A stretch of 64,000 bases of DNA, taken from positions 76,692 through 140,691 of the forward strand of contig JBGSWE010000007.1 in NCBI GenBank assembly GCA_041752595.1, read 5' to 3'. Below, one piece after another: positions 3,677-61,840 of this stretch (position 1 is its first letter; every line of letters begins with the position of its first letter). Source of the DNA: Candidatus Saccharimonadales bacterium (GTDB taxonomy: Bacteria > Patescibacteriota > Saccharimonadia > Saccharimonadales > JACDBH01). The notes beneath the pieces are model-generated. The model worked only from the letters and a program-made list of their open reading frames with translations. It made no database searches and had not been told where the DNA came from. The translations under genes and the position numbers were made by a program.

Positions 3677-3753
3677 TGGTAGCGATGACTGGATTTGAAC
3701 CAGTGACCCCAGGCTTATGAGTCCTGTGCTCTAACCAACTGAGCTACATCGCC
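3677..3753 (-). tRNA. tRNA-Met (anticodon CAU), elongator type, CCA encoded
   Basis: Reverse complement folds as cloverleaf: 7-bp acceptor stem (G1-U72), D-arm GTAGCTCAGTTGGTTAGAGCA, anticodon loop CTCATAA, T-arm GGTTCAAATCC. Strongly resembles E. coli metT. C11:G24 elongator feature. Confidence 0.8.
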
Positions 3754-5138: not shown

Positions 5139-5530
5139 AACCTTTATAATTGCGCTATTTGTTCATCAATTGCTAGTATTGATGCGTCATTAGTTGGTAA
5201 AAGTTCGTAGTTAATTGTGTTAAACATTTTTTGGTCCTTTTTGTTTTTATTTTTGCCAATATTGATTTTTATGACAATAGCTACATTATAGCAAAAGTTT
5301 GTTAGTTTGTCAATATTGTTTATGTTTATTGTTATAATTAACTGATTAAACCTGTAAAATAAGTTGCTATATTAACGTAATAATGCTTTACTACCTTTGC
5401 AGGTTATATCTGTTCTTAACTAGCTAAACATGAATGTTCGCCTCGTTTAAACGCAGGAAGAGTTCGATAAAGTCCACTAGAATAAGTTCAGTAAGAAAGT
5501 TTGGTCGATCACTCTGCGTTTAAAAAATCG

Positions 5531-5557
5531 GATACTTACTTTTAAATAGTAAGTATC
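5531..5557 (+). promoter_or_regulatory. perfect 10-bp stem hairpin in 5' UTR immediately upstream of RBS of RRM gene
   Basis: gatacttact / agtaagtatc inverted repeat, followed by aaggaaat RBS and ATG at 5573. Confidence 0.4.
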
Positions 5558-5572
5558 AGTACAAGGAAATAG

Positions 5573-5878
5573 ATGTACAAATTATTTGTAGGCGGCTTGC
5601 CGTTTGCTACCACCGAAGATGAACTTCGCGACATGTTCGCAGTTCATGGTGCAGTAGCATCAGCAATTGTCGTCAAAGACCGCGATACCGGTCGTAGCAA
5701 GGGATTCGGCTTTGTCGAGTTCGAGAGCGACGACGAAGGTAAAGCTGCCGAAAAGGCCCTTAACGGGTCTGACATGGGCGGCCGTTCTATCACTGTTAAC
5801 GAGGCTCGTCCTCGTGAGGAGCGTCCTCGACGCGACTACAACGGTGGTGGTAATGGTGGTGGCAACCGAAGCTGGTAA
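5573..5878 (+). CDS. glycine-rich RNA-binding protein with RRM domain
   Basis: RNP-1 like KGFGFVEF, RNP-2 like LFVGGL, Gly-rich tail; locally elevated GC. Confidence 0.85.
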   Translation: MYKLFVGGLPFATTEDELRDMFAVHGAVASAIVVKDRDTGRSKGFGFVEFESDDEGKAAEKALNGSDMGGRSITVNEARPREERPRRDYNGGGNGGGNRSW

Positions 5879-5901
5879 ATTACTAGCTCTTGCACCCAAA
5901 T

Positions 5902-5933
5902 AAAATACCCCTCATTGAGGGGTATTTTATTTT
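5902..5933. terminator. Rho-independent terminator (bidirectional, between convergent genes)
   Basis: aaaatacccctc-attg-gaggggtatttt hairpin flanked by A and T runs. Confidence 0.8.
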
Positions 5934-8901: not shown

Positions 8902-8976
8902 CGCGGGGTGGAGCAGTGGCAGCTCGCGTGGCTCATAACCACGAGGTCCTAGGTTCGAGTCCTAGCCCCGCTACCA
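8902..8976 (+). tRNA. initiator-type tRNA-fMet (anticodon CAU), CCA encoded
   Basis: CGCGGGGTGGAGCAG 5' end as in bacterial initiator, C1xU72 mismatch, A11:U24, anticodon loop CTCATAA. Confidence 0.8.
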
Positions 8977-16686: not shown

Positions 16687-16762
16687 GGGGGTATAGCTCA
16701 GTGGTTAGAGCAGAGGACTCATAATCCTTTGGCCCTTGGTTCAAGTCCAAGTACCCCCACCA
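16687..16762 (+). tRNA. tRNA-Ile2 (anticodon CAU, lysidine-modified; ileX-like), CCA encoded
   Basis: Near-identity of D-arm, anticodon arm (G27-U43 wobble, CTCATAA loop) and T-arm to E. coli ileX; perfect 7-bp acceptor stem GGGGGTA/TACCCCC. Confidence 0.75.
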
Positions 16763-35850: not shown

Positions 35851-35885
35851 ATCTGCTAGAATACCACGAGGGGAATAATAAAAAC

Positions 35886-37592
35886 ATGGATTCAATTTTT
35901 ATAGAACTTAGCGTAGTTATTGCTGTAGCTGTAAGCATGAGCCTCTTTATGCGCATTATTAGACAGCCGCTTATTATTGGACACATTCTAACGGGCCTTC
36001 TAGTTGGGCCTACTGTATTTAACCTTGTTAAATCGACAGAAACTATTGATGTATTCTCAGAGTTTGGTATTGCCTTGCTGTTATTTATCGTTGGACTTGG
36101 CCTGAATCCTCGAATTATAAAAGAAGTGGGTAAAGTTGCTGGTGCTATAGCATTTGTAAAAATAGCTGTAGTAACAAGCCTGGGCTTTTTAATTTGTAGT
36201 GCTTTAGGATTTGGTACAACCGAATCATTGCTTTTAGGTATAGGGCTTTCATTTAGTAGTACTATCATCATTCTTAAACTATTAGCTGACAAAAAAGAGC
36301 TTTCTAGGTTATACGGTAAAATTTCTATTGGTTTCTTACTCGTAGAAGATATTGTTGCAACTTTCTTGCTCGTCATTGTAGCTGCATACGCTTCAAGCGG
36401 CGGAATAAATCCTGGTGAGCTTGGGTTACTTGTTGCTAAGTTTGCCGGGCTGATTACTTTCTTAGTTCTTGTTCGAATTATATTCATAAACCATATGACC
36501 AACCTGATTGCAAAAAGTCAGGACTTTTTATTTCTTTTTGCAATTGGTTGGGCGCTAGGTATTGCTGCACTATTTCAGTACGTTGGATTTAGCCTAGAGA
36601 TTGGAGCACTTGTGGGGGGTGTTGTGTTAGCTAGCCTTCCTTATGCTCAGGAAATATCGTCACGCTTAAAGATACTAAGAGATTTCTTTATTGTCTTATT
36701 CTTTATAGGCCTTGGGTCTCACTTAAAGCTTGATAACATTACCAATGTACTACCCCAAGCAGTATTATTATCTATGTTAGTTCTTATAATAAATCCTCTT
36801 ATTGTTATGAGTGTTATGGGGCTCGGTGGTTATACCAAAAAGACAAGCTTTAAAACTGGCATGACCGGTTCACAGGTTTCTGAGTTCTCACTTATTTTGC
36901 TACTCTTAGCCGAAAAATCAGGTCTAATAGGAATACGTTCAGTATCGTTATTGACCATGGTGGCCTTAATAACAATTGCCGTTTCCACTTATATGATCCT
37001 TTACTCAGACAATTTATATAGTTTCTTTGAGCGTTACTTAAGATTTTTCGAACGTAAGAAGGTAAAGGAACACAAAGAAAAGCGCGAACATTACGAGTTA
37101 GTACTCATCGGCTACCACAAAGGCGGTCATGAATTCTTGAAAGTATTTAAGTCACTAAAAAAGAAATACATAATCGTAGATTATGATCCACAGGTTATTG
37201 ATGTTCTTGATAATCGTGGTGAGCCGTTCTTATATGGTGACGTTACAGATCTGGAACTGTTGGAGGAGCTTAACCTAAGCCATGCACACTTAATAGTTTC
37301 AACTATTACAGACTTGCCAACAAATTTACTGATTGCAAAATGGCTTGAAAAAAATAATCCACATGCTGTTTATATTGCAACCGCAGACGCAGCAGAAGAA
37401 GCTGCAGAGCTATACGAAGAAGGTGCGTCTTATGTTGTACTACCTCACTATATTGGCTCAGAAAAGATTAGCTCGTTTCTAAAGAAAAATGGTCTAAATA
37501 AAACAGAGTTCCGTCATTACCGCGAAAAACATTTAGCCTATTTACAGAGTCATCACGAACTTTTTGCAAGCGTATCTGGCAAAGATATATAA
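35886..37592 (+). CDS. CPA2 cation:proton antiporter with C-terminal TrkA-N (RCK) domain (Kef-type)
   Basis: About 12 TMs then Rossmann VLIGYHKGG. Confidence 0.8.
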   Translation: MDSIFIELSVVIAVAVSMSLFMRIIRQPLIIGHILTGLLVGPTVFNLVKSTETIDVFSEFGIALLLFIVGLGLNPRIIKEVGKVAGAIAFVKIAVVTSLGFLICSALGFGTTESLLLGIGLSFSSTIIILKLLADKKELSRLYGKISIGFLLVEDIVATFLLVIVAAYASSGGINPGELGLLVAKFAGLITFLVLVRIIFINHMTNLIAKSQDFLFLFAIGWALGIAALFQYVGFSLEIGALVGGVVLASLPYAQEISSRLKILRDFFIVLFFIGLGSHLKLDNITNVLPQAVLLSMLVLIINPLIVMSVMGLGGYTKKTSFKTGMTGSQVSEFSLILLLLAEKSGLIGIRSVSLLTMVALITIAVSTYMILYSDNLYSFFERYLRFFERKKVKEHKEKREHYELVLIGYHKGGHEFLKVFKSLKKKYIIVDYDPQVIDVLDNRGEPFLYGDVTDLELLEELNLSHAHLIVSTITDLPTNLLIAKWLEKNNPHAVYIATADAAEEAAELYEEGASYVVLPHYIGSEKISSFLKKNGLNKTEFRHYREKHLAYLQSHHELFASVSGKDI

Positions 37593-38212
37593 AGCCAGTG
37601 TTCGTTAATATACTGCCTTATACTCTCTAGAGATTCGGGAGCATTATGGCCTTTTTGTAAGGCATTCCTAATTGTTTGTGATGACGCGGCTGGCCTATTG
37701 GTTTCTATGGCAATTCCGTGAGGTTGAATTGTTGATAATATCTGTTTTGCTCGTTCAAGCTCGTGGCCAGACCTAACGCCAGTTATTAATCTAACTGTAG
37801 ATAACAAACGCTCACTATTTGGCCAATGCCCATCACGCAGACTCTCTAGAACGTCACTACCTAGCAACAAGTGTAGTTCGTCGTGCACAAACAAACGCTG
37901 AAGCTTAGGCAGGGTGCGTGCAATAGTAAACTGCTTATCGGATAGTTCTACTACTCTAAGTGATTGATGAGGGATTAATGCTAATTTCAGCATAGCTACT
38001 CGGTGTCCATAATGTGTTACACCGGTTTTATGATACGGCAAAACATCGGGTAAAAAATAGATAAAATCAAGCGACGCAGCCTTTGCAGCAGCTAGCGCAA
38101 ACCCAATATGGCCCTTATGAACAGGATCAAAGGTACCAGAATAAATACCAATTTTCCTGGGTTTTTGTCCCACTAACTGGTTAAGGCCTTTGCTTTTTAT
38201 GATTTTAGTCAT
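37553..38212 (-). CDS. nadD: nicotinate-nucleotide adenylyltransferase
   Basis: GIYSGTFDPVHKGHI nucleotidyltransferase (H/T)xGH motif. Confidence 0.85.
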   Translation of the reverse strand: MTKIIKSKGLNQLVGQKPRKIGIYSGTFDPVHKGHIGFALAAAKAASLDFIYFLPDVLPYHKTGVTHYGHRVAMLKLALIPHQSLRVVELSDKQFTIARTLPKLQRLFVHDELHLLLGSDVLESLRDGHWPNSERLLSTVRLITGVRSGHELERAKQILSTIQPHGIAIETNRPAASSQTIRNALQKGHNAPESLESIRQYINEHWLYISLPDTLAKSS

Positions 38213-38221
38213 TAACCTATT

Positions 38222-38425
38222 CTACCTCGAAACTGTTACATCACAAGAAGGACAAGTAATTGTTGTTGGTGTAAGTACAGCGTCAACCAACTTTTTACAA
38301 AAAGGACATGTCACACAAGGCATCAAATTTGGGTTAGTATTACTAATTCGATCGTGGTCAATTTCGCAAAGTCCGTCGCAGTTTGCGGCTTGATGTTCGT
38401 ATAGTTCAGGGGTTAGTTTAGTCAT
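38222..38425 (-). CDS. small zinc-ribbon protein (67 aa)
   Basis: Four CxxC-type pairs (CDGLC, CVTCPFC, CPSC); start at internal Met just after upstream stop. Confidence 0.5.
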   Translation of the reverse strand: MTKLTPELYEHQAANCDGLCEIDHDRISNTNPNLMPCVTCPFCKKLVDAVLTPTTITCPSCDVTVSR

Positions 38426-39653
38426 TGGCTTGCCTTTTAATTTTTGTCTCTTTTTTATTACTAAATACCACAGTGATGCTTTCTTTCTGTATTTTACTAA
38501 CGCCCCTATAAAGTTTTGCAGGGTCTCTACCTTTATCAAACCAATTTTGGCAATTGCGACAAACACTACACTGAGCCACCTTTGTCTTTCCGGGTCGAGT
38601 TGGGCAATTATCAACACGGCAAATGCCTTCTTTCCAGATTAACTTATCTTTGCCGTCTCCAGATTTGTCCGCTTGGTTGCCATAACCTAAATCACTCATC
38701 TGAGATTCGGCGCCAACACTAAACTGATCGCCCACACTTTTGCCGCAACCACTAAACACTTCACCTCTCGCCTGTGCAAAGTTTCCTGCTCGATACATTT
38801 CATCAATAGCCATAGAATATGCCACCAATCCAGCATCAACTTTCTCAATTCTGGCTTCTACTTTGCCCACATAACGATCTTTCATTGCTGCTGCTAATGC
38901 GTAATCACGAAAACCGCCTGTAAATCCTGTAGTGGTTGCGAAATATGCAGATAATAAATCTTTTTGGTTACAAACAAATTCATAAGTATCATTTGTGTTC
39001 TCGTTTAATCTACCGGCATACCATTCACCGCTAAATTGAGCCTTCATGGAACGATCGTAAACATACCTTAACTGACTAATCATAAATTCCTTAGACATAT
39101 CATCTAATTCTACAAACTTACGTTGTCCTAACAGTTCGCCAGGTGCGACAGGTTCACCCAGATATTCGTACATCGCCTCAAGTGCGCGGCGGTTGCTGCC
39201 ATCTAGCGATTGGCTATACATTTTGAGCTTGCCACTTTCAGTCTTAGAAATAACTCGTAGCATTGTTTGTTTACGACTTACATTGTATCCACCCACGTCT
39301 TCTGTAGCATTCATAAGTTCTGGCGGAAAATCAGATACAACTACCATAGTGTTTGGTTTGTCTCCGGTCATCATTGCCAGCATATCTAAATACTCTTGTT
39401 TTTCTAGCTTTCGACGGCGCAACTCATAACTAGGCAGATCCTTTGCTTGTTCAATTGAATCATCAAATATCTTGCCCATAGCACTACCATCAGAGGCATA
39501 TAATTCACCTTCATGATACGTATATTCGAACGGCGTTCGCATGCTACCTGGCATGACCTCAGCTAGCCAGGTAACAGTATCGTAATATCGGCGTGTTTCG
39601 TGATCATAGCTTTTATTTTCAATATTTTGTTGTTCGACTAAATAATTCATCAA
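38418..39653 (-). CDS. hypothetical protein (411 aa) with C-terminal Cys cluster
   Basis: Long ORF, C-terminal CRVDNC...CSVCRNC; no family recognised. Confidence 0.6.
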   Translation of the reverse strand: MMNYLVEQQNIENKSYDHETRRYYDTVTWLAEVMPGSMRTPFEYTYHEGELYASDGSAMGKIFDDSIEQAKDLPSYELRRRKLEKQEYLDMLAMMTGDKPNTMVVVSDFPPELMNATEDVGGYNVSRKQTMLRVISKTESGKLKMYSQSLDGSNRRALEAMYEYLGEPVAPGELLGQRKFVELDDMSKEFMISQLRYVYDRSMKAQFSGEWYAGRLNENTNDTYEFVCNQKDLLSAYFATTTGFTGGFRDYALAAAMKDRYVGKVEARIEKVDAGLVAYSMAIDEMYRAGNFAQARGEVFSGCGKSVGDQFSVGAESQMSDLGYGNQADKSGDGKDKLIWKEGICRVDNCPTRPGKTKVAQCSVCRNCQNWFDKGRDPAKLYRGVSKIQKESITVVFSNKKETKIKRQAND

Positions 39654-39800
39654 AAAACCCTTGCTACGCGAGCAAGGGTTAATCTATACCAACCTTACGA
39701 GTCGTCAGTATATTATGCTCCTGCTCGGGAGACTTTATTGCTAGATCGGACTTTAACCGTTGCGGCACAGCGAGGGAATTTCACCCTACTTCCAGCGTTT
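39654..39800 (-). promoter_or_regulatory. structured 5' leader ending in terminator/RBS-sequestering hairpin (candidate riboswitch or attenuator)
   Basis: Minus-strand RNA ...cccuugcucgcguagcaaggguuuuuugAUG: stem includes the only purine-rich RBS-like element; about 120 nt of upstream leader with further pairing potential. Confidence 0.35.
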
Positions 39801-39937
39801 TTGTAATTTGTATAAGGAACTTATAATACAGTGTAACCCAATTAGACTACGCTAGATATAGTATTTTTTGCTTCATTTATACCACTAAAAACTTAGTAAT
39901 CTAGGTCTGAATAAGATAGAACTTAGTTTAAAATATA

Positions 39938-39966
39938 TTGACATAATAGCAATAATATGCTAATAT
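39938..39966 (+). promoter_or_regulatory. sigma70-like promoter (TTGACA-17-TAATAT) for small-ORF cassette
   Basis: Perfect -35, 17-nt spacer, near-consensus -10. Confidence 0.5.
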
Positions 39967-40059
39967 GTGTACTGTGACATGGTATATCTATGGCACGTTA
40001 TTTAAAAAGCTTTCTTTCACTATCTTCTTTCGGATATTTTAGTGTTTACCTTATTAGTT

Positions 40060-40111
40060 AGTGGTTGGAAATAAGCTCGTTTATATATAAGCTGGTTTAT
40101 TCCCAACCACC
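40060..40111 (+). promoter_or_regulatory. long inverted repeat in leader of 40127 ORF
   Basis: gtggttggaa ... ttcccaaccac arms enclosing aagctcg/aagctgg repeats, immediately before RBS aaggaaacc. Confidence 0.35.
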
Positions 40112-40126
40112 AACAAGGAAACCATC

Positions 40127-40360
40127 ATGTCCGACAATCTAGCTGAAGACTTTCAAGATAGGCCTCGGCCAATCTGGATGGAATACCTAGACGAAGCACC
40201 TCGTGTTACGACTACTTCGGATTCAGACATCACAGAATTGGACAGATTTCGCATCGATCGAGAGATTGAAATTGAAGCGTGCTACAGCCTCCTGTGCAAG
40301 TTTCCGTTCTGTTATGAGCTACGTACGGAGTGCACCAAGCATTTCGTTAAGAAATCTTGA
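40127..40360 (+). CDS. small Cys-containing protein (77 aa), unknown function
   Basis: RBS acaaggaaacc-N3-ATG; C-terminal CX4CX4CX6C. Confidence 0.45.
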   Translation: MSDNLAEDFQDRPRPIWMEYLDEAPRVTTTSDSDITELDRFRIDREIEIEACYSLLCKFPFCYELRTECTKHFVKKS

Positions 40361-40396
40361 ACTACCATTCGCACCAACCACCAGACAAGGAAACCT

Positions 40397-40609
40397 ATGA
40401 CCACCACGTTCAACGAAATCCCGTTCCTCGGCACCCACCGCCCCGAAGCCCGTCGCCCGCGACCCCCGCTTCCGGCAATCCCGCCACAAGATGACCCCAT
40501 GCCCGAACACGACGTCGATGACACCAAGTTCGGTGACATCTGCTTCCTGGGCGACGGTCTCTCGGTCTTCCGGTCTCCCTGTGGAGCCGTGCACGTACAA
40601 ATGATGTAG
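40397..40609 (+). CDS. small Pro-rich protein (70 aa) encoded in GC-rich patch
   Basis: Same RBS motif acaaggaaacc-N1-ATG as preceding ORF; high-GC third positions; ORFs on other frames are GC artefacts. Confidence 0.4.
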   Translation: MTTTFNEIPFLGTHRPEARRPRPPLPAIPPQDDPMPEHDVDDTKFGDICFLGDGLSVFRSPCGAVHVQMM

Positions 40610-40694
40610 TGAAAGAAGGCTTCACAAGAGGGGGAAAAGTATAAAATTAACTGAGCAATTGCTCTTTTAACCTAGTACTATCACCTCCTCTTGT

Positions 40695-40745
40695 AAGCCC
40701 CAGAGCAGACAAATTATTGTCTTCTGTGGGGCTTTTATTTTGCTT
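40695..40745 (+). terminator. Rho-independent terminator of small-ORF cassette
   Basis: gccccagagcagac-loop-gtcttctgtggggc followed by ttttatttt. Confidence 0.7.
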
Positions 40746-41394
40746 TAAAACTTTGTAATATTTGGCGCAAAATACTGTTATCGGGACGAATATTAGCGTC
40801 AGTATAGTAAAAGAAGAATTTATTACGTCCAACTTGAGCCGCAATGCCGTCGATTGCTGTTGCTGTACCGATTGTTTGATTAGCAGATATGGGGTCGCAC
40901 ATAAAACTGACGTTTTCCCACTTTGCTAAGAACGGTGCGTTACTTTGCGGCGAGGTACTACCCGAGAAGTTTATACATTCATCAGAAATGTTACCAAGAA
41001 TTAGTTTTTTGTCGTCTACTGTTATTGGTTGTAGCCTTACTAGCTTGTACTCTCTTGGCATAGTGTTTATATGAAGAGTTAGCCTGCGGTCATCCCCACC
41101 TTTTTTAGTTGATATCCAAGAGTAATAATTGGCATAATCTTCTGTTTTACGTTCTTGTAGCTTCCAATCACTTGGTAAGTCTAGGGAAAACAGAGTTTCA
41201 TCTATTTTTTGTACTTCCTCGTCGCTTCCTACCTCTGACAAAATAGGAACAGTTGTTTTGGGGTCTGTTGAACTGGCGATATCCTGGCGTATTATTAGCC
41301 ACGACAATAGCACTATTACTCCGGCAAGAACAATAGTGCCAAAAAATATTGCTATGTTGAGGGGACGTCTAGTGCGTCTTCCGTGTTGATACAT
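40735..41394 (-). CDS. membrane-anchored hypothetical protein
   Basis: N-terminal TM then soluble domain. Confidence 0.5.
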   Translation of the reverse strand: MYQHGRRTRRPLNIAIFFGTIVLAGVIVLLSWLIIRQDIASSTDPKTTVPILSEVGSDEEVQKIDETLFSLDLPSDWKLQERKTEDYANYYSWISTKKGGDDRRLTLHINTMPREYKLVRLQPITVDDKKLILGNISDECINFSGSTSPQSNAPFLAKWENVSFMCDPISANQTIGTATAIDGIAAQVGRNKFFFYYTDANIRPDNSILRQILQSFKAK

Positions 41395-41407
41395 GCTTAT
41401 GTCTATT

Positions 41408-42214
41408 TTAGCCTAAAACACCAAAAGCCACCAAGACTAGAAGCAAAAATCCAAAAAATATTCGATAATAGGCAAATATCTTAAAATCATGGCGCGATAC
41501 ATATGATAGCAACCATTTAATTACTATTAACGCGGTTATAAACGATACAAAAACCCCGACAATCAACGCCGGTGCACCACCCTCAACTGTTGTTAAGTCG
41601 CCAGTAATAAGCTTGTAAGTGCCGGCCATTAGTAATATTGGTATTCCTAAATAAAATGAAAAAGCTGTGGCAGTAACACGGTCTAATCCAGATAATAATC
41701 CACCCATAATTGTTGCCCCAGACCTTGATACGCCTGGAATCAAAGCAATAACTTGGTAACATCCTATAAGAAGTGCTTGTTTGATTGTGATTTTGTCCAA
41801 ATTTGCTTCTTTAGAGGGCTTTGCTCGGTGGTAAGTCTCGATAAACCAAATAACAATACCACCAACTATTGATGCTATCGCAACTGTGGTGGTGATAGCA
41901 TATGCCTCAAGTTTTGCGTCAAAAAATAGTCCGGCAATACCGGCTGGAATAGTAGCAAGTATCCAGACAACCCAAAATGCCCTAGCCAGTTTATCCCCAT
42001 TAAATAGTCCCTTAACAAGATTGATTAAATTTAGCCTATAAAACCAAATAACGGCCGAAATTGCGCCCATCTGTATGACAACCGTAAAGATCTTGCTGGT
42101 GTCATAATAACCAATCGCATCTTGGGCAACAATCAAGTGACCAGTGCTCGAAATAGGTAAGAACTCTGTCAAACCCTCTACTATGCCCAAGATAATTGCT
42201 TGAAAAATTTCCAT
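41408..42214 (-). CDS. uppP: undecaprenyl-diphosphatase
   Basis: N-terminal GLTEFLPISSTGHL motif, 8 TMs, 268 aa. Confidence 0.9.
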   Translation of the reverse strand: MEIFQAIILGIVEGLTEFLPISSTGHLIVAQDAIGYYDTSKIFTVVIQMGAISAVIWFYRLNLINLVKGLFNGDKLARAFWVVWILATIPAGIAGLFFDAKLEAYAITTTVAIASIVGGIVIWFIETYHRAKPSKEANLDKITIKQALLIGCYQVIALIPGVSRSGATIMGGLLSGLDRVTATAFSFYLGIPILLMAGTYKLITGDLTTVEGGAPALIVGVFVSFITALIVIKWLLSYVSRHDFKIFAYYRIFFGFLLLVLVAFGVLG

Positions 42215-42248
42215 ATTCTAAAGTCTATTATAGGCTACAATAGAAGTA

Positions 42249-42650
42249 ATGAGTTATTTTTTAGTAAAAGCCGATCCAGATTCTGATTATGGAATCGAGG
42301 ACCTAAAAAAAGACGGCGAAACTAGTTGGGACGGGGTACATAATAACGCTGCAATTTTGCACATCCGGGCTATGAAACCTGGAGACATTGTCTATGTTTA
42401 TCATTCTCAAAAGCAAAAGTCTATTGTAGGCATGGCAGAAGTAACTAGTGAACCATACGAAAATACCGACGACCCTAGGCGCTCCTGGGCTGTAAAACTA
42501 AAATATTTGAGCACACTAGCAAAACCAATCACTCTAGCAGAACTAAAGACTCAGCCAGATTTAAGTGATTTTGCACTAATTAGAATAGGCAGACTAAGTG
42601 TTATGCCAGTATCAGAAAAGCACAATAACATCATAGAAAGCTTAAAATAA
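42249..42650 (+). CDS. EVE (PUA-like) domain protein
   Basis: YFLVKADPD...WDGV..N..A...M.PGD..Y.YHS signature. Confidence 0.75.
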   Translation: MSYFLVKADPDSDYGIEDLKKDGETSWDGVHNNAAILHIRAMKPGDIVYVYHSQKQKSIVGMAEVTSEPYENTDDPRRSWAVKLKYLSTLAKPITLAELKTQPDLSDFALIRIGRLSVMPVSEKHNNIIESLK

Positions 42651-42651
42651 A

Positions 42652-43083
42652 GTGATTGGTACTCGTACAAATAAACACATAAAAAATTACAGAAAACAGA
42701 TCAAAGAGCTTAAGCCTGGAATTTGCCAGTTTTGTGAGATTAAAGAAGGTGATTCAAGTTATATTAAAGGAACGAAATCATTCAAAATCATTACTAATAT
42801 TTTTCCATATAGCACCTGGGATTTACAAAACGTTAGCGACCACTTAATGATAGTGCCTATAAAACATACAGATACGTTAAATGACTTTACTGCAAATGAA
42901 GCGATAGAGTACGTTGATTTACTTGGATCATATGAAAGCCGTGGCTATAATGTGTACTCTCGAGCTCCTGGTGCAGGTATGAAATCTGTAGTCCATCAGC
43001 ACACACATTTAATTAAGACTACTGGTCAAATAAAACGAATAATACTTTATACTCGCAGGTCACTACTTCGGATTATTGTATAA
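42652..43083 (+). CDS. HIT-family hydrolase
   Basis: Histidine triad HQHTHLI near C-terminus. Confidence 0.7.
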   Translation: MIGTRTNKHIKNYRKQIKELKPGICQFCEIKEGDSSYIKGTKSFKIITNIFPYSTWDLQNVSDHLMIVPIKHTDTLNDFTANEAIEYVDLLGSYESRGYNVYSRAPGAGMKSVVHQHTHLIKTTGQIKRIILYTRRSLLRIIV

Positions 43084-43262
43084 TATGATCATTTTGCGCA
43101 AACAATAACTAGGATGTTGGCTTCTGGGGTTAACTCACTTTTTGGTATATTGTCAAGTGTTCCTACTTATGATTCTGAGCTAGTACTAGCTTGTTGTTTA
43201 TGTATTTAAATATAATCAGCCAACCCTCTATTAGAAAGCGATGATCGTTAGCCGTAAATAAT

Positions 43263-46124
43263 TTAACTATACAGACGTCTTGAGTAAAAGCCACGGAGTG
43301 CGATAACTGCTAGGCTTAGCGGTACAACCAACAGTCCCCATGCAGGACTAACTAACCACCAAACAAGTGCGACTACAGCGAATGTTGCCACAAACCATAT
43401 AAAGAACTGTGTCTTAGATATAGTGAGTCTCAAATATTCAGCGCCTAGGTAGTAGTATGGGAACACGGTTACAACTAGTAGTGTGCTAGAAAGCAGACCA
43501 AATATCAGCACTACAGACAAGCCTTCCCAGAATGGGCTAGTAAGTGCTAATGGGATTAAGGCAACTACAGCAGTCATTGATGTTGCAAACAATGGGCGGA
43601 ATCTCTCCCTTAGGGCCTCGATTGCAGCGTCAACCGCACCCATGCCATCGCGGCGGGCTTGGTTTGCGTAATCCGTCACTAGAATAGTGTTTTTGACACT
43701 AAGTCCAAGAAGAGCAAAGAAACCAAGCAGAGCAAAGAAGCTAAATGCATTATTACTAATATTAAGTCCTAATGCTATACCAAATAGACTGAATGGTATC
43801 GCCATAAATATGAGAAGCGGCTGTAGCAAACTCTTAAACTGAACTGCTAAGAGTACAAACATAACAACTAACAATATCGGGAAAGCAATTAATAGTGTCT
43901 TAAAAGATTCTTGGTTTTCGGCTTCTTGGCCAAGCTCAAAAATTATTGCATCCTCTTTAAGGCCGAAGCTTGCCAGCTTTTCGTTTGTAAACTCGTCGTT
44001 AATAGCTGCTTGTCCAATAGTAACAAGTGTGGACGTATCATCACTATCAAAGCCAGCTGATACTGTAACAATTGGTTTACCGTCGGTGCGAATAAACTGA
44101 TCTGGACTAGAGACTGCGACACTAACAAATTTTGCCGTCGTACCATTTGGCCTTTCTAAACTTGTTGTTTCCATGAACGTTTTCACATCCTCTGCCACAA
44201 TCAGGGCTGCATCACGGTTTTCTGCCTTTATTTGAACTACGAAGTTAGCAGATGGCGGACCGACTCCGGTTTGACCTACGGAAACCTGTGCACCCTTAAA
44301 CTCTGTATTAAATTTTTCCTGTAAATTATTAACTAGTTCCGGCGCCTTAATGTCTCGCTTGGTATAGCTAATTATTTCTATTTGTTGAGAAGCGCTTTGG
44401 GCTGAGCCGCTATTAAAATATGATCCTTGGACAAAATCTTCGCCGATTATATCGGCTGCAAATTTATCGGCTTCGGCAGCGACTTCTTCGGCTTGTTCAA
44501 TTGAAAGTCCTGGAGGAAAATTAATACTTAATACTAATCCGTTTACATCTTTGTCGGCTGGAAAAATATTAAAAGGCACGCTGCGTGCAATTAATGCACC
44601 GGCCAGTATAAAGCCAAGTCCAATAAATACAGCTATAGATCCTACTGCAAAAAGTTTGCGCCTAGAGTGTCTAGCCCAAACCATTGGCCAAGTTACAAAC
44701 TTAGCAATCGCAGCCTCAAAGCCGGCTGCAACTTCTGTAACTCCCTTTTTGCCCATTTGCTTGTCGCCAAGTAATAAGTAGCGCGCAAAAAACGGAATAA
44801 ATACTAAAGCTACTATAAGACTAATACTTAGTGAGGCTATAATCGTAACTGGAATAGCACGGATGAACTCACCCAATATTCCACCGACAAAAAGTAGTGG
44901 TGCAAAACTAAGTGCCGCTGTTGCTGTTGCCGCAACCATAGCCCTGCTTACCTTACGGGTTGCCTCTTGTACTGCTTTACGCTTGTCTTTATGCTTATGC
45001 CTTGCTGCATCAATCGCCTCAACCATAATGATGGTATCGTCAACAATTAAAGCAAGAGCCAAAATTAGTGCAAAAAGTGTTATTACATTTAATGTATAGC
45101 CGATTGCGAACAATAGACCAAGAGTTGCTAGTACAACTGTAATCATTGATATGACAGTAATTATCGAGGCGCGAATAGCAATAACTATTGAGCCCACGAC
45201 AAGGACTGCAATTAAGCCCTCTAGAAGTGCTTTTTGTAGCTCTGAAATATTGTCTTTAATTCCGGGAGCATAACTTGCACTTACTTCGGCTTTATAGGAA
45301 GAGAATTGATCTTGTTTTTGTAGCTCTGAAAGTGCACTATTTACTTCTTTATCAAGTTTTATAACGTCAACGTTGTCAACCGCCGAAAATGCAACTATTA
45401 CTGAGCGGCTATAGTTTGTTGATCCTTCTTCACGTAAACCGAATCTATCAAAATTTCGCTGTACTGAAACTGTTTTACCATTTGATGGATCAACTGTTTC
45501 TGTAAATGGATCTAGAATATAAACATCTGCAACACCAGAAATATTTTTAGATTTTAGCCACTCTGCAGCTTCTTTGGCTTTAGTAGTTAATTCTTGTTTG
45601 CTTGCATTGTCTTGCTTATTAAAGAATGAAGCTGCAAGATCTAACTTTTCTACACCTCCACCAGTTGCACCAAAATATATAGTATTAAATTGAATTGCTG
45701 CATCTTTGGGCAAAACACCAGAGTCTTTAACGGAGTTTTCTAGCTGATTCGTAGCAGTTTTTGAATCAATGCCGTCCTCAAAAGTAACTTGTACAGAAAA
45801 AAAGTTTCCTTGGCTTTGAGATCCAACCGAGACAACCCCTTCTTGCTTAAGGGCGATATCGGATATTGGACCTGTAACATCTGCGTCAACTTTACTTGCG
45901 TCATTTACAAAATATGTTCCGCCAACAATTGCCAAGGGTACATTAACGGTTGGGAAGCCTTCGCGTCTTAATAGGGTGGTGTAGCTGAGTATTCCAAAGA
46001 CTGTAAGTATTATCCAAAATGCGGCAGTTAAGAATGGCTTGTCGAAGAAAAAAGTTGTTATCTTAGAAAGTAGCTTATCCTTAGGTACCTTTACTACTGC
46101 CTTTTTATTAGGTTTTTTGGCCAT
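43263..46124 (-). CDS. MMPL/RND-superfamily transporter
   Basis: 953 aa, 2x(1 TM + large loop + 5 TM) topology. Confidence 0.8.
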   Translation of the reverse strand: MAKKPNKKAVVKVPKDKLLSKITTFFFDKPFLTAAFWIILTVFGILSYTTLLRREGFPTVNVPLAIVGGTYFVNDASKVDADVTGPISDIALKQEGVVSVGSQSQGNFFSVQVTFEDGIDSKTATNQLENSVKDSGVLPKDAAIQFNTIYFGATGGGVEKLDLAASFFNKQDNASKQELTTKAKEAAEWLKSKNISGVADVYILDPFTETVDPSNGKTVSVQRNFDRFGLREEGSTNYSRSVIVAFSAVDNVDVIKLDKEVNSALSELQKQDQFSSYKAEVSASYAPGIKDNISELQKALLEGLIAVLVVGSIVIAIRASIITVISMITVVLATLGLLFAIGYTLNVITLFALILALALIVDDTIIMVEAIDAARHKHKDKRKAVQEATRKVSRAMVAATATAALSFAPLLFVGGILGEFIRAIPVTIIASLSISLIVALVFIPFFARYLLLGDKQMGKKGVTEVAAGFEAAIAKFVTWPMVWARHSRRKLFAVGSIAVFIGLGFILAGALIARSVPFNIFPADKDVNGLVLSINFPPGLSIEQAEEVAAEADKFAADIIGEDFVQGSYFNSGSAQSASQQIEIISYTKRDIKAPELVNNLQEKFNTEFKGAQVSVGQTGVGPPSANFVVQIKAENRDAALIVAEDVKTFMETTSLERPNGTTAKFVSVAVSSPDQFIRTDGKPIVTVSAGFDSDDTSTLVTIGQAAINDEFTNEKLASFGLKEDAIIFELGQEAENQESFKTLLIAFPILLVVMFVLLAVQFKSLLQPLLIFMAIPFSLFGIALGLNISNNAFSFFALLGFFALLGLSVKNTILVTDYANQARRDGMGAVDAAIEALRERFRPLFATSMTAVVALIPLALTSPFWEGLSVVLIFGLLSSTLLVVTVFPYYYLGAEYLRLTISKTQFFIWFVATFAVVALVWWLVSPAWGLLVVPLSLAVIALRGFYSRRLYS

Positions 46125-60069: not shown

Positions 60070-60088
60070 ATAGTTCCTAAATATATTA

Positions 60089-61840
60089 CTACCAGCCACC
60101 GCCACCACCACCGCCACCACCGCCTCCCGAACCACCGCCACCACCAGAGCCACCAGATGAAGAAGATGCGGCGCCTGACGAATTAATAGATGCTGTCATG
60201 TTTGACATAGCACTTGAAAAACTAGCAGCACTAAAGATCGCTAAATTATTGCCTACATACCAGTTCGGTTGCGCATCGGTAGATTCGTAATACATACCCA
60301 GTTGCTTATTCCATTCTTTTTCTTGGCCAAACAATATAGCATATGGCAGAACTCTTTCGTACAACTTCACTAATTGTTTTTGGTCAGCACCATCTACCCC
60401 AACTTTTGCAGCCCCTTCTGGGCTCTGCAACATTTTAATACGATCAACTTCAGCGACTTTAATATAAAGTTTAAGACCCTCTAAGTACCTTGCAAGTGCC
60501 AGACCCTTTTCTGTTAGCGGATACAAGGTAAAGGACAACGCAAAAGCCGTTATTGAGGCAATAATTAGCGGCATATTAAGAGATAAAATACTTATAACAA
60601 GTAGCCAAAAGCTAAGTTTCTTGAACCAAGCAGATTTAGCTGGATCTTTTGCTCTAATTTCATAACCCTTTCTAATAAGTTCTTCTAATTTCTTTGGGTT
60701 ATCTACAAAACGCGCAGTCATGGCGTAGTCTTTTTTAAAATCTTTTGTGTTAAATTTCATTCCAACCACAGGAATGGCGCCAAAAATATCGATTAATATT
60801 TCTTGCTCTTCTGGGGCTAGATCGGTTATAGGTTTTATAACTTCTATTTCGTACTCGGCAGAAGAAAAAAACTTCTTTTCCTTAACTTCATAGATTTTTA
60901 TGTAGTGTCGAACTGCAAAATCTAGTATTTGGGCGGCAAAAGCGGTACTTGATTTTACTACCGCAGCCGATACTTGTACGCTTGTTGATTCTGGAGGCAA
61001 ATACTCTGGAATGATGGTACCGATTTCGTGCTTACGATCTGACCATTTGTAATAACGAACTATTAATAGAATTATGAGACTGATAGCCGCAAATAGTCCC
61101 ATGATTTGAGAGATTGTCCAAACAGTTAAAACTTTTTCCCAAAGAGTCTGTTTATATTCCGCGAATGTTCCTACCTGAAAACCAATGGCTAGTGTAATGT
61201 TATCGCCGCTAGATAGCTCCGATGCACTAGTCTCGTACCTGTTGCCTAATTTATCAACTTCACATTGTTTATATGATCCATATTGACCAAAATAGCAAAC
61301 ATTTTTACCTGTTAGGCTAGACTCCAGCGAATCATCAATTTCTAAGGATACAGACAGAGCAGATATTGGTACCCTCCATTCAGTGCCGTTTGTGTCCCAA
61401 TAAAACTCCTCACTGTTAGTATCGGTAAAATATCTCGTCACATCACGCTGCGTATATTCAATTTCGTAAGCTTGTTGTCCTCGTACATAAGTATCAGCAT
61501 CGCCAATGCGCAGCACTGTGTAGTCACCACTACTATAGGTTGTAAAATTCCATGATTCACCTGACTCATTTTTTACAGAAACAATATTAATACTTGTCGG
61601 ATGACCATCGTATTCTTTTGGAATATACCGCTCTATGCCACGATTTTGATCAAAGCTCGGAAATTCGGCAACAATTGTTTCTTTGGTTGTGAGTATTGAT
61701 CTTTGCTCATCATCGCGACTTAACGTAAGCGTAATGTTATAGTTAGATATTGTGAAATTATTAACGTCTGCACTTGCAGTACTAGATACGCCAAACGACA
61801 ATAATAACGTAAATAGTAATACAAAAATTAACTTTTTCAT
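60089..61840 (-). CDS. DUF2207-like membrane protein with extracellular N-domain and C-terminal poly-Gly tail
   Basis: Signal peptide, large N-terminal domain, TMs, terminal SGGSGGGGGSGGGGGGGGGGGW. Confidence 0.6.
   Translation of the reverse strand: MKKLIFVLLFTLLLSFGVSSTASADVNNFTISNYNITLTLSRDDEQRSILTTKETIVAEFPSFDQNRGIERYIPKEYDGHPTSINIVSVKNESGESWNFTTYSSGDYTVLRIGDADTYVRGQQAYEIEYTQRDVTRYFTDTNSEEFYWDTNGTEWRVPISALSVSLEIDDSLESSLTGKNVCYFGQYGSYKQCEVDKLGNRYETSASELSSGDNITLAIGFQVGTFAEYKQTLWEKVLTVWTISQIMGLFAAISLIILLIVRYYKWSDRKHEIGTIIPEYLPPESTSVQVSAAVVKSSTAFAAQILDFAVRHYIKIYEVKEKKFFSSAEYEIEVIKPITDLAPEEQEILIDIFGAIPVVGMKFNTKDFKKDYAMTARFVDNPKKLEELIRKGYEIRAKDPAKSAWFKKLSFWLLVISILSLNMPLIIASITAFALSFTLYPLTEKGLALARYLEGLKLYIKVAEVDRIKMLQSPEGAAKVGVDGADQKQLVKLYERVLPYAILFGQEKEWNKQLGMYYESTDAQPNWYVGNNLAIFSAASFSSAMSNMTASINSSGAASSSSGGSGGGGGSGGGGGGGGGGGW

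Follow-up and report, generated by a model that had tools for sequence, protein, structure and literature searches.

A predicted structured mRNA frame with GC-rich orphan reading frames in a variable slot of a soil Saccharibacterium

The 64,000-nt stretch of DNA analyzed here (the window) originated from a soil Saccharibacterium (Saccharimonadales), and the public Logan contig L001 is identical to its positions 35852-44555. Saccharibacteria live as obligate epibionts and have very small genomes; to our knowledge, both their post-transcriptional control and their strain-specific genes are almost entirely unexplored. Positions 39938-40745 on the plus strand of the window contained a small gene cassette, which consisted of a promoter, a 5' untranslated region (UTR), two small open reading frames (ORF1 and ORF2), a 3' UTR, and an intrinsic terminator. 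An autonomous unit with a strong promoter, a leader, two ORFs, and a terminator had been proposed in a first-pass annotation of this DNA, and all of these parts were found in place. The non-coding parts of the cassette (the frame) recurred around a different coding content (the cargo) in a distant lineage of Saccharibacteria. Our leading interpretation, which we hold with middling confidence, is that of a native, stability-optimized, and probably translationally gated structured mRNA frame that carries a fast-evolving or exchangeable orphan cargo.

The promoter (TTGACA-17-TAATAT, 39938-39966) was of the sigma-70 type and agreed with the consensus at 10 of 12 positions. It also had a TG-extended -10 element, and the near-consensus promoter that had been annotated is thus well founded. 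Its spacer held a TAGCA-N6-TGCTA palindrome. All RNA structures described here are predictions, and the transcription start was inferred from sequence. The leader was about 154 nt long, close to the 150 nt given earlier, whereas its inverted repeat, which had been described as 10 bp, proved to be larger, with 29-nt arms at 40057-40085 and 40086-40114. A 5'-terminal hairpin (H1, 39974-39996) was predicted by folding 0-3 nt from the inferred transcription start. It was followed by the 5' arm of a long-range closing helix (AAGCUUUCUUUCACUA, 40007-40022) and by a long leader hairpin (40030-40135, core 40057-40114) that was indicated by both the fold and the inverted repeat. In the extended base of this hairpin, a conserved CCUU was predicted to pair with the Shine-Dalgarno (SD) sequence of ORF1 and to cover the ORF1 AUG. 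Downstream of the coding part, the 3' arm of the closing helix (UAGUGAAAGAAGGCUU, 40607-40622) opened with the ORF2 stop codon. The two arms, which form a 16-nt inverted repeat, were 94% complementary, and their sole mismatch was a G.U pair in RNA. The closing helix was part of the minimum free energy (MFE) structure of the 773-nt window transcript, with predicted pair probabilities of 0.76-1.0. Folding and repeats further revealed a 3' domain (40624-40694), in which an 11-bp stem (ACAAGAGGGGG / CCUCCUCUUGU) surrounded an inner hairpin, and the intrinsic terminator (40695-40745). The latter had 18-bp arms (40695-40712 and 40717-40734) followed by TTTTATTTTG, which agrees with the strong terminator of the first-pass annotation; it was overlooked by a simple terminator scan. 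Its U-run overlapped the last codons of a convergent gene for a 219-aa protein (40735-41394, minus strand). Compared with shuffled sequences, the folds of the 5' and 3' UTRs of the window had z-scores of -5.4 and -5.9, respectively.

ORF1 (40127-40360) and ORF2 (40397-40609) encoded 77 and 70 aa, as previously claimed. The translation of ORF1 contained the reported C-x4-C-x4-C-x6-C motif at its C-terminus, and that of ORF2 was Pro-rich (11 Pro) and contained 2 Cys. Both products were hydrophilic and acidic, with grand averages of hydropathy of -0.64 and -0.41 and isoelectric points of 4.7 and 5.0, respectively, and had no hydrophobic stretch; inspection of the two translations by eye revealed no signal peptide or membrane segment. 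AlphaFold (AF2) models built without an alignment were of low confidence, with a predicted local distance difference test score of 58 for ORF1 and 63 for ORF2 and a predicted template modeling score below 0.3. Each ORF was preceded by a translation initiation region composed of a CA-rich and an SD element (CCAACCACCA-ACAAGGAAACC at 40103-40123 for ORF1 and CCAACCACCAGACAAGGAAACC at 40374-40395 for ORF2). The same ribosome-binding context, ACAAGGAAACC, thus occurred upstream of both ATGs, as had been pointed out, and the repeat as a whole matched at 21 of 22 nt (CCAACCACCA(G)ACAAGGAAACC). The 10-nt CCAACCACCA was unique to the two copies within 64 kb, and elsewhere the SD sequence ACAAGGAAA was used only by the gene for an RRM protein. 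The earlier interpretation of the repeat as a duplication was therefore retained for CCAACCACCA and dropped for ACAAGGAAA, which is also the ribosome-binding site of the RRM gene. Because of this shared use, ACAAGGAAA is regarded as the strong SD sequence of the organism, and the repeat exceeds an SD sequence since CCAACCACCA precedes it. The 22-nt repeat suggests that, in the window lineage, units made up of an ORF and its initiation region became arranged in tandem. In the predicted folds, the SD sequence and the AUG of ORF1 were paired with probabilities of 0.98 and 0.97, whereas initiation at ORF2 was about half accessible (SD sequence 0.50 and AUG 0.35 free).

ORF1 and ORF2 were in the same frame, 36 nt apart without overlap, with a TGA and 12 codons between them. 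TGA is a genuine but rare stop codon in this host; the 39 window ORFs of at least 200 aa ended in TAA (27), TAG (10), or TGA (2). Selenocysteine incorporation or programmed read-through of the TGA found no support, as the 40 nt after the UGA were CA-rich without a local hairpin and the KKS-UGA-TTI context lacked a Cys partner. It is unlikely that the cassette is a decaying remnant, i.e., that ORF1-TGA-ORF2 is a former gene of approximately 160 codons that acquired a stop. The shared frame and the single TGA would be in keeping with decay, and so would the missing gene call in the public assembly and the missing period-3 signal of ORF1. Other occupants of the same genomic slot decay, too (a pseudogene by reading in locus L021), and the window may retain approximately 20 nt of that membrane-protein gene of 61 aa, a weak indication. 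However, ORF2 has its own complete SD sequence and ATG at the proper spacing, a shared frame is expected by chance in one of three cases, the elements of the frame are all intact and thermodynamically strong, and the period-3 bias of ORF2 has been retained despite the AT-rich genome.

The mean GC content of the window was 0.387, with a standard deviation of 0.048 on a 200-nt scale. The patch that contains ORF2 reached a 200-nt peak of 0.645, which is 5.4 standard deviations above the mean and the top value of the window; the GC-rich patch that had first been noticed by eye thus withstood a sliding-window check. ORF2 itself had a GC content of 0.62, with 0.66, 0.47, and 0.74 at the first, second, and third codon positions (GC1, GC2, and GC3), and ORF1 had a GC content of 0.46 and a GC3 of 0.49. 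Host ORFs of at least 200 aa had a GC3 of 0.305 ± 0.038 (maximum 0.42), so that the G/C-ending codons of ORF2 are indeed unlike those of the host. ORF2 was rich in C (0.40 overall, 0.53 at third positions) and poor in G, and its period-3 GC pattern was significant in a permutation test (p = 0.0035). The log-likelihood under host codon usage of both ORF1 and ORF2 was below that of all 175 in-frame host windows, whereas the RRM gene, which is as GC3-rich as ORF1, scored as a normal host gene. Several further ORFs that overlap in other frames are shadow ORFs, in accordance with their earlier description as GC artefacts. The GC-rich segment was not unusually structured (z = -1.3 against shuffles) and was C-rich and G-poor, and the GC-richness is for these reasons considered a coding-type rather than a structural signal. 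A non-coding RNA gene behind the GC peak was rejected on the basis of the missing Rfam match, the shuffle-like structure, and the codon periodicity, and a diversity-generating retroelement or repeat partner was rejected because the window held no second copy of the patch.

Two other GC peaks were observed in the window. One (5300-5930, plus strand) coincided with the gene of the RRM-type RNA-binding protein (5573-5878, 101 aa, with a Gly-rich tail), which had a GC content of 0.54, a GC3 of 0.49, a leader of approximately 230 nt, the SD sequence ACAAGGAAA, and a strong terminator. The other (approximately 60080-60200) corresponded to a C-terminal poly-Gly/Ser tail in a membrane protein of 583 aa (60089-61840, minus strand) and is due to composition. 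Both peaks are thus of an ordinary kind.

The composition of the cassette bears on a second explanation, in which ORF2, and perhaps ORF1, was recently acquired by horizontal transfer from a high-GC donor (an actinobacterial host, a phage, or a plasmid) into a native expression site and has not yet been ameliorated. We consider this possible, if doubtful. Besides the height of the GC peak, GC1 and GC2 of ORF2 were raised too, the codon choice (CCG, CCC, GCC, CGC, all NNC) is one that characterizes genomes of high GC content and is seldom made in the host, and both ORFs scored below every host coding window. The 22-nt repeat ahead of each ORF resembles a recombination junction, and the slot in which the cassette lies is prone to gene gain and loss, with no cassette in the nearest relatives.

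This slot was examined in 18 Saccharibacteria loci that were retrieved through the alignment of homologues of a neighboring 410-aa protein, and in further loci found by exact look-ups. The conserved gene order was BacA, the 219-aa gene, a gap, a riboswitch, the 410-aa gene, a 67-aa gene, and a CTP-transferase-like gene. In seven loci, the gap measured 240-330 bp and contained the riboswitch alone. Elsewhere it held a response regulator with a Pro/Asp/Ala-rich tail, a 61-62-aa membrane protein, a SIMPL-like protein, a flavodoxin-like protein, a 333-346-aa protein, or others, none of which resembled ORF1 or ORF2. This gap, which separates the riboswitch from the 219-aa gene, is a hot spot where Saccharibacteria gain and lose genes. 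The cassette was absent from the closest sampled relatives, L021 and L023 (69 and 66% identity in the 410-aa protein, respectively). Profile searches of all fetched loci recovered the cassette solely in the window and in L024-L026, and the loci from five added look-ups of neighbor homologues were without it. An origin of the cassette as a remnant of the response-regulator gene that occupies the slot in L003, L006, and L011 was rejected, as tblastn found no similarity. In L021, the 61-aa membrane-protein gene in the gap was a pseudogene by our reading of the gap sequence. Several contigs ended exactly at the variable gap (window 39654-40735; loci L003-L026 and L117-L124).

The divergent neighbor of the cassette, the 410-aa protein gene (38418-39653, minus strand), lay behind an AdoCbl-II (B12) riboswitch (39734-39810, 42.5 bits). 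An attenuator hairpin (39680-39656) was located between the riboswitch and the 410-aa gene, which was followed by an overlapping gene for a 67-aa Cys-rich protein; the whole arrangement spanned 38222-39810 on the minus strand. The 410-aa protein was found in Saccharibacteria/Patescibacteria-type metagenome-assembled genomes (MAGs) only, with 461 homologues that were all annotated as "hypothetical." It had no Pfam domain and no solved relative, and contained a conserved C-terminal CRxDNCPTRPGKTKVAQCSVCxxCQ. The riboswitch was kept at the same place in at least eight other loci, and the 410-aa protein is therefore put forward as a candidate new B12-regulated gene family. The riboswitch leader (39654-39877) was 92.5% identical to that of L023 (4284-4511) over 228 nt, with 66% identity in the downstream protein; the whole leader, beyond the aptamer, was unusually strongly conserved between the two.

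The frame of the cassette recurred in the distant Saccharibacterium lineage of L024, L025, and L026 (410-aa homologue 61% identical, genome GC 0.53), three samples in which the cassettes were identical. The promoter, the 5' hairpin, the leader hairpin, the CA-rich and SD region, the 3' stem-loop, and the terminator were common to the window and L024. The 36-nt promoter pattern TATTGACATNNTAGCAATNATATGCTANTATGTGTA, which includes the spacer palindrome, had exact matches in L024, L025, and L026, with 88% identity over 42 nt, and the terminator-region sequence TGTAAGCCCCAGAGCAG was the same in L024 and L025. The z-scores of the L024 UTRs were -4.4 (5') and -6.7 (3'). In the 1026-nt L024 transcript, an 11-bp closing helix was predicted at the aligned positions, was part of the MFE structure, and had a probability near 1. 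Five homologous helices were compared between the window and L024, namely, the 5' hairpin, the closing helix, the leader hairpin, the 3' stem, and the terminator, and together they differed by nine compensatory double changes and three one-sided wobble changes. These included two compensatory pair changes in the counterpart of H1, two compensatory and one wobble change in the closing helix, three compensatory pairs in the leader hairpin, and two compensatory changes in the 3' stem; a few internal mismatches were conserved between the lineages. The first initiation region was predicted to be masked in both, as the L024 SD sequence pairs with its own start-codon region. The frame was AT-rich and native-looking, and its SD sequence was that of the host RRM-protein gene. 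These comparisons indicate that the frame is a native Saccharibacterial element, presumably under RNA-level constraint.

The closing arms could also be read as DNA. In that case the inverted repeats of 16 bp (40007-40022 and 40607-40622) would be recombination sites of an invertible or exchangeable segment, which we find hardly credible. The repeats do bracket exactly the leader, the SD sequence, and the coding region, and the lineages have conserved flanks around different cargo, in a slot that is variable. On the other hand, the window repeat is imperfect in DNA, with its mismatch forming a G.U pair in RNA, and the repeats vary in sequence and length between the lineages, which is unexpected for recombinase sites. 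No recombinase was present among the neighbor genes examined, and inversion would expose no plausible SD-led ORF. Alternatively, the transcript may function as a large structured or sponge-like non-coding RNA in which the ORFs are incidental. With its closing helix, terminal hairpins, and conserved stems, it has an architecture like that of many P1-closed non-coding RNAs, the first initiation region is masked, and the C-rich, G-poor interior is unstructured. However, neither the gathering score nor a relaxed E of up to 10 yielded an Rfam family for 39900-40760 (apart from miRNA matches at noise level), and none was obtained for the L024 cassette. In addition, the interior is not conserved between the lineages and has a codon periodicity that is extreme in L024 (GC3 0.93 vs. 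GC2 0.41), and a strong SD sequence and start codon lie exactly at the boundary between frame and cargo in both lineages. A purely non-coding role is thus quite unlikely.

The cargo of L024 was a single 239-aa ORF (P0125) with a GC content of 0.65 and GC1, GC2, and GC3 of 0.61, 0.41, and 0.93, respectively; 94% of its third positions were G or C. Across the cargo of the window and L024, 53-63% of the third positions were C. Homology between the two cargos was rejected, as Smith-Waterman scores were at or below those of shuffled sequences. The GC3 of the L024 host was about 0.57, and its neighbor genes had a GC3 of 0.55-0.63 and GC1 and GC2 values similar to those of P0125. Since GC1 and GC2 of the L024 cargo are host-like, the bias appears to be an effect at synonymous sites rather than a foreign amino-acid composition. 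This second GC3-rich ORF in the same frame also speaks against a recent acquisition from a high-GC donor. It is improbable that the same frame received two recent imports independently, and the GC-richness therefore looks like a feature of the cassette family. Because the raised GC3 is seen in both lineages although their genome backgrounds differ widely, and because only synonymous positions are affected in L024, we consider it a maintained property of the cassette.

Searches for relatives were consistently negative. ORF2 had no relative in a word index of 5.8 billion proteins, and the exact ORF1 and ORF2 sequences were missing from a collection of 15 billion proteins. An exhaustive phmmer (HMMER) search with ORF1-X-ORF2 against 1.84 billion representatives produced one spurious match only (P0126, E = 6.6e-4), which was rejected as a tandem-repeat artefact protein whose repeat matched one ORF1 segment five times. 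Plasmids and phages (at the DNA and protein levels) and viral contigs contained no relative of either ORF, and three pattern scans of viral contigs for the cassette were empty. ORF1, ORF2, and the L024 cargo had no meaningful match to Pfam (E up to 10), PHROG, or PADLOC families, and no homologue of P0125 was found, which makes it an orphan as well. The promoter pattern matched 90 unrelated promoters in a scan of metagenome contigs, but no cassette was among them. In many high-GC metagenome contigs, a near-identical promoter-like sequence, TTGACATAGTAGCA-N6-TGCTACTAT(C/T)ATGCGCGAAAG, recurred that was unrelated to the cassette (L028, L029, L033, L035, L040, L059, L064, L087, L095, L100, L106, and others).

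According to the first-pass annotation, the cassette had recently been imported from a high-GC donor, such as an actinobacterial host. No relative turned up in the protein libraries, plasmids, phages, and viral contigs searched, a survey that did not include tblastn against Actinomycetota genomes, and as the searches found no homologue, the idea of an actinobacterial donor is without positive evidence. The L024 cargo is likewise orphan. Signatures of mobility were also missing: no integrase, tRNA edge, or flanking direct repeat was seen at the locus, the sole direct repeat was internal to the cassette, and no tRNA gene was present within 20 kb of it. On one side, the cassette was flanked by the 219-aa gene of unknown function, BacA, and EVE, and on the other side by the B12-riboswitch operon. 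The identifiable neighbors were BacA, EVE, HIT-like, CTP-transferase-like, and Na/H exchanger proteins, and the remainder belonged to no family; homologues of the neighbor proteins were confined to Saccharibacteria/Patescibacteria MAGs.

It had further been suggested that the ORFs form a precursor pair of a bacteriocin or a ribosomally synthesized and post-translationally modified peptide (RiPP), a toxin-antitoxin pair, or a signaling peptide. Two small adjacent ORFs, the Cys motif of ORF1, and the promoter-spacer palindrome would suit a RiPP/bacteriocin or toxin-antitoxin pair, and the 5'-3' pairing and masked initiation region recall hok-type mRNAs. However, Pfam, PADLOC, and PHROGs gave no family match, the products have no hydrophobic or secretion segment, and the ORFs are 36 nt apart and do not overlap. 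The neighbors examined contained no modification enzyme, as had already been remarked, and no transport, export, or immunity gene adjoined the cassette. None of the three suggestions was upheld, and a RiPP/bacteriocin or toxin-antitoxin pair is highly improbable.

With the native structured frame as the leading interpretation, the following course may be envisaged. The near-consensus promoter would start an RNA of approximately 770 nt whose first nucleotides form a hairpin. The 5' UTR (40007-40022) and the 3' UTR (40607-40622) are predicted to pair and to close the coding part into a loop, and the second stem-loop and the intrinsic terminator would end the RNA. The leader hairpin is predicted to mask the first SD sequence and AUG, so that translation of the first cistron would be gated, whereas ORF2 would use its own, more accessible copy of the initiation region. 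It is known that 5'-terminal stem-loops lengthen mRNA life. The terminal hairpin and the 5'/3' helix of the cassette may block both 5'-end-dependent and endonucleolytic decay and result in a long-lived mRNA, as in the case of hbs of Bacillus subtilis. The products would be small, acidic proteins of the cytoplasm that contain Cys and either undergo very rapid evolution or pass from strain to strain; as a guess, they could serve as strain-specific interaction or regulatory factors of the epibiotic lifestyle. The GC-richness would be maintained at synonymous sites in the cassette family and would not be the mark of a recent import. The raised GC3 could stem from selection at the level of the mRNA or of translation, or from a process specific to the locus.

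Several observations weigh against this interpretation. The transcript, its start, its stability, and its translation were all deduced from sequence alone. The period-3 signal of ORF1 was not significant (p = 0.37), and ORF1 may be untranslated; moreover, the in-frame TGA between ORF1 and ORF2 could signal a broken gene. Overall identity of the UTRs between the window and L024 was only 55-60%, and the conservation of the frame therefore consists of islands. Only two independent lineages carry the frame, and as L024, L025, and L026 are identical, the covariation amounts to one pairwise comparison. With two lineages, a cargo that has diverged past recognition is not separable from one that has been swapped. 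The C-ending codons fit translational selection only in part, as CCG, CCC, GCC, and CGC are rare in the host, and no known force has been established that would hold the GC3 of a single gene at 0.74-0.93. Absence from protein databases is weak evidence in the case of small ORFs, and gene callers skipped ORF1 and ORF2.

The locus offers a compact RNA architecture that is supported by covariation between distant lineages. It also presents a puzzle: although the two genomes differ greatly in GC content, the GC3 of the orphan ORFs stays 0.35-0.45 higher than that of the host in both. If this bias is selected, it would point to an unrecognized constraint on mRNA or translation in Saccharibacteria; if it reflects origin, foreign ORFs would have been captured repeatedly into one expression frame. 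A more daring explanation, which is very unlikely, is that the frame is a platform for a nuclease-resistant, masked message with high-GC codon usage that is aimed at the actinobacterial host (translated there or repeatedly captured from it), with the cargo acting as a fast-evolving host-interaction effector. In a weaker form, it would be a plug-in frame in which recombination within the conserved UTRs lets strains exchange unrelated ORFs. The gene caller behind the public contig L001 called no gene at the cassette, which shows that standard gene callers overlook such genes entirely. Elsewhere in the window, three tRNA genes with a CAT anticodon were located within 13 kb (3677-3753, minus strand; 8902-8976 and 16687-16762, plus strand); these presumably encode the initiator tRNA, the elongator Met tRNA, and a lysidine-modified Ile tRNA.

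The cassette shares individual traits with several known systems. In contrast to type II toxin-antitoxin modules, neither cassette ORF could be assigned to an established toxin or antitoxin family by searches of PADLOC, PHROGs, or Pfam (E up to 10). The strong promoter and the two short neighboring ORFs, of which one has a Cys cluster, are reminiscent of RiPPs and class II bacteriocins, but the cassette is without a leader motif, a family match, or an adjacent modification enzyme, transporter, or immunity gene. Similar to phage morons and genomic islets, the cassette is an autonomous promoter-gene-terminator unit of deviating composition that lies between conserved genes in a variable slot. 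However, its flanks are chromosomal housekeeping genes without a viral or phage match, and its frame is conserved across lineages, unlike that of morons. The mRNAs of the hok type carry two reading frames and have a stable full-length form with a sequestered initiation region and with the 3' end folded back onto the 5' end. The fold-back pairing of the mRNA ends and the masked initiation region predicted for the cassette, as well as the two reading frames on one RNA, are comparable to hok/sok. In contrast, the cassette ORFs are hydrophilic, acidic, non-overlapping, and devoid of a membrane segment, and no antisense RNA gene was identified. The cassette also has no small hydrophobic toxin (less than about 60 aa), and the 239-aa cargo of L024 is incompatible with a small toxin.

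In the hbs mRNA of B. subtilis, a 14-bp helix that joins the 5' UTR to the 3' UTR limits the access of RNases (Braun, Durand and Condon 2017, PMC5737220). Long-range pairing between the 5' UTR and 3' UTR was likewise predicted for the cassette and supported by comparison, with 16 bp in the window and 11 bp in L024. The two systems have no sequence relationship, and the first SD sequence of the cassette is predicted to be masked, whereas that of hbs is occupied by ribosomes. Furthermore, hbs encodes a conserved and abundant protein, in contrast to the orphan, GC-biased cargo of the cassette, which is known from its sequence alone. Taken together, the cassette combines two known themes, that of a stable mRNA closed through its UTRs and that of an orphan accessory gene, with the raised GC3 of its cargo as a puzzling trait.

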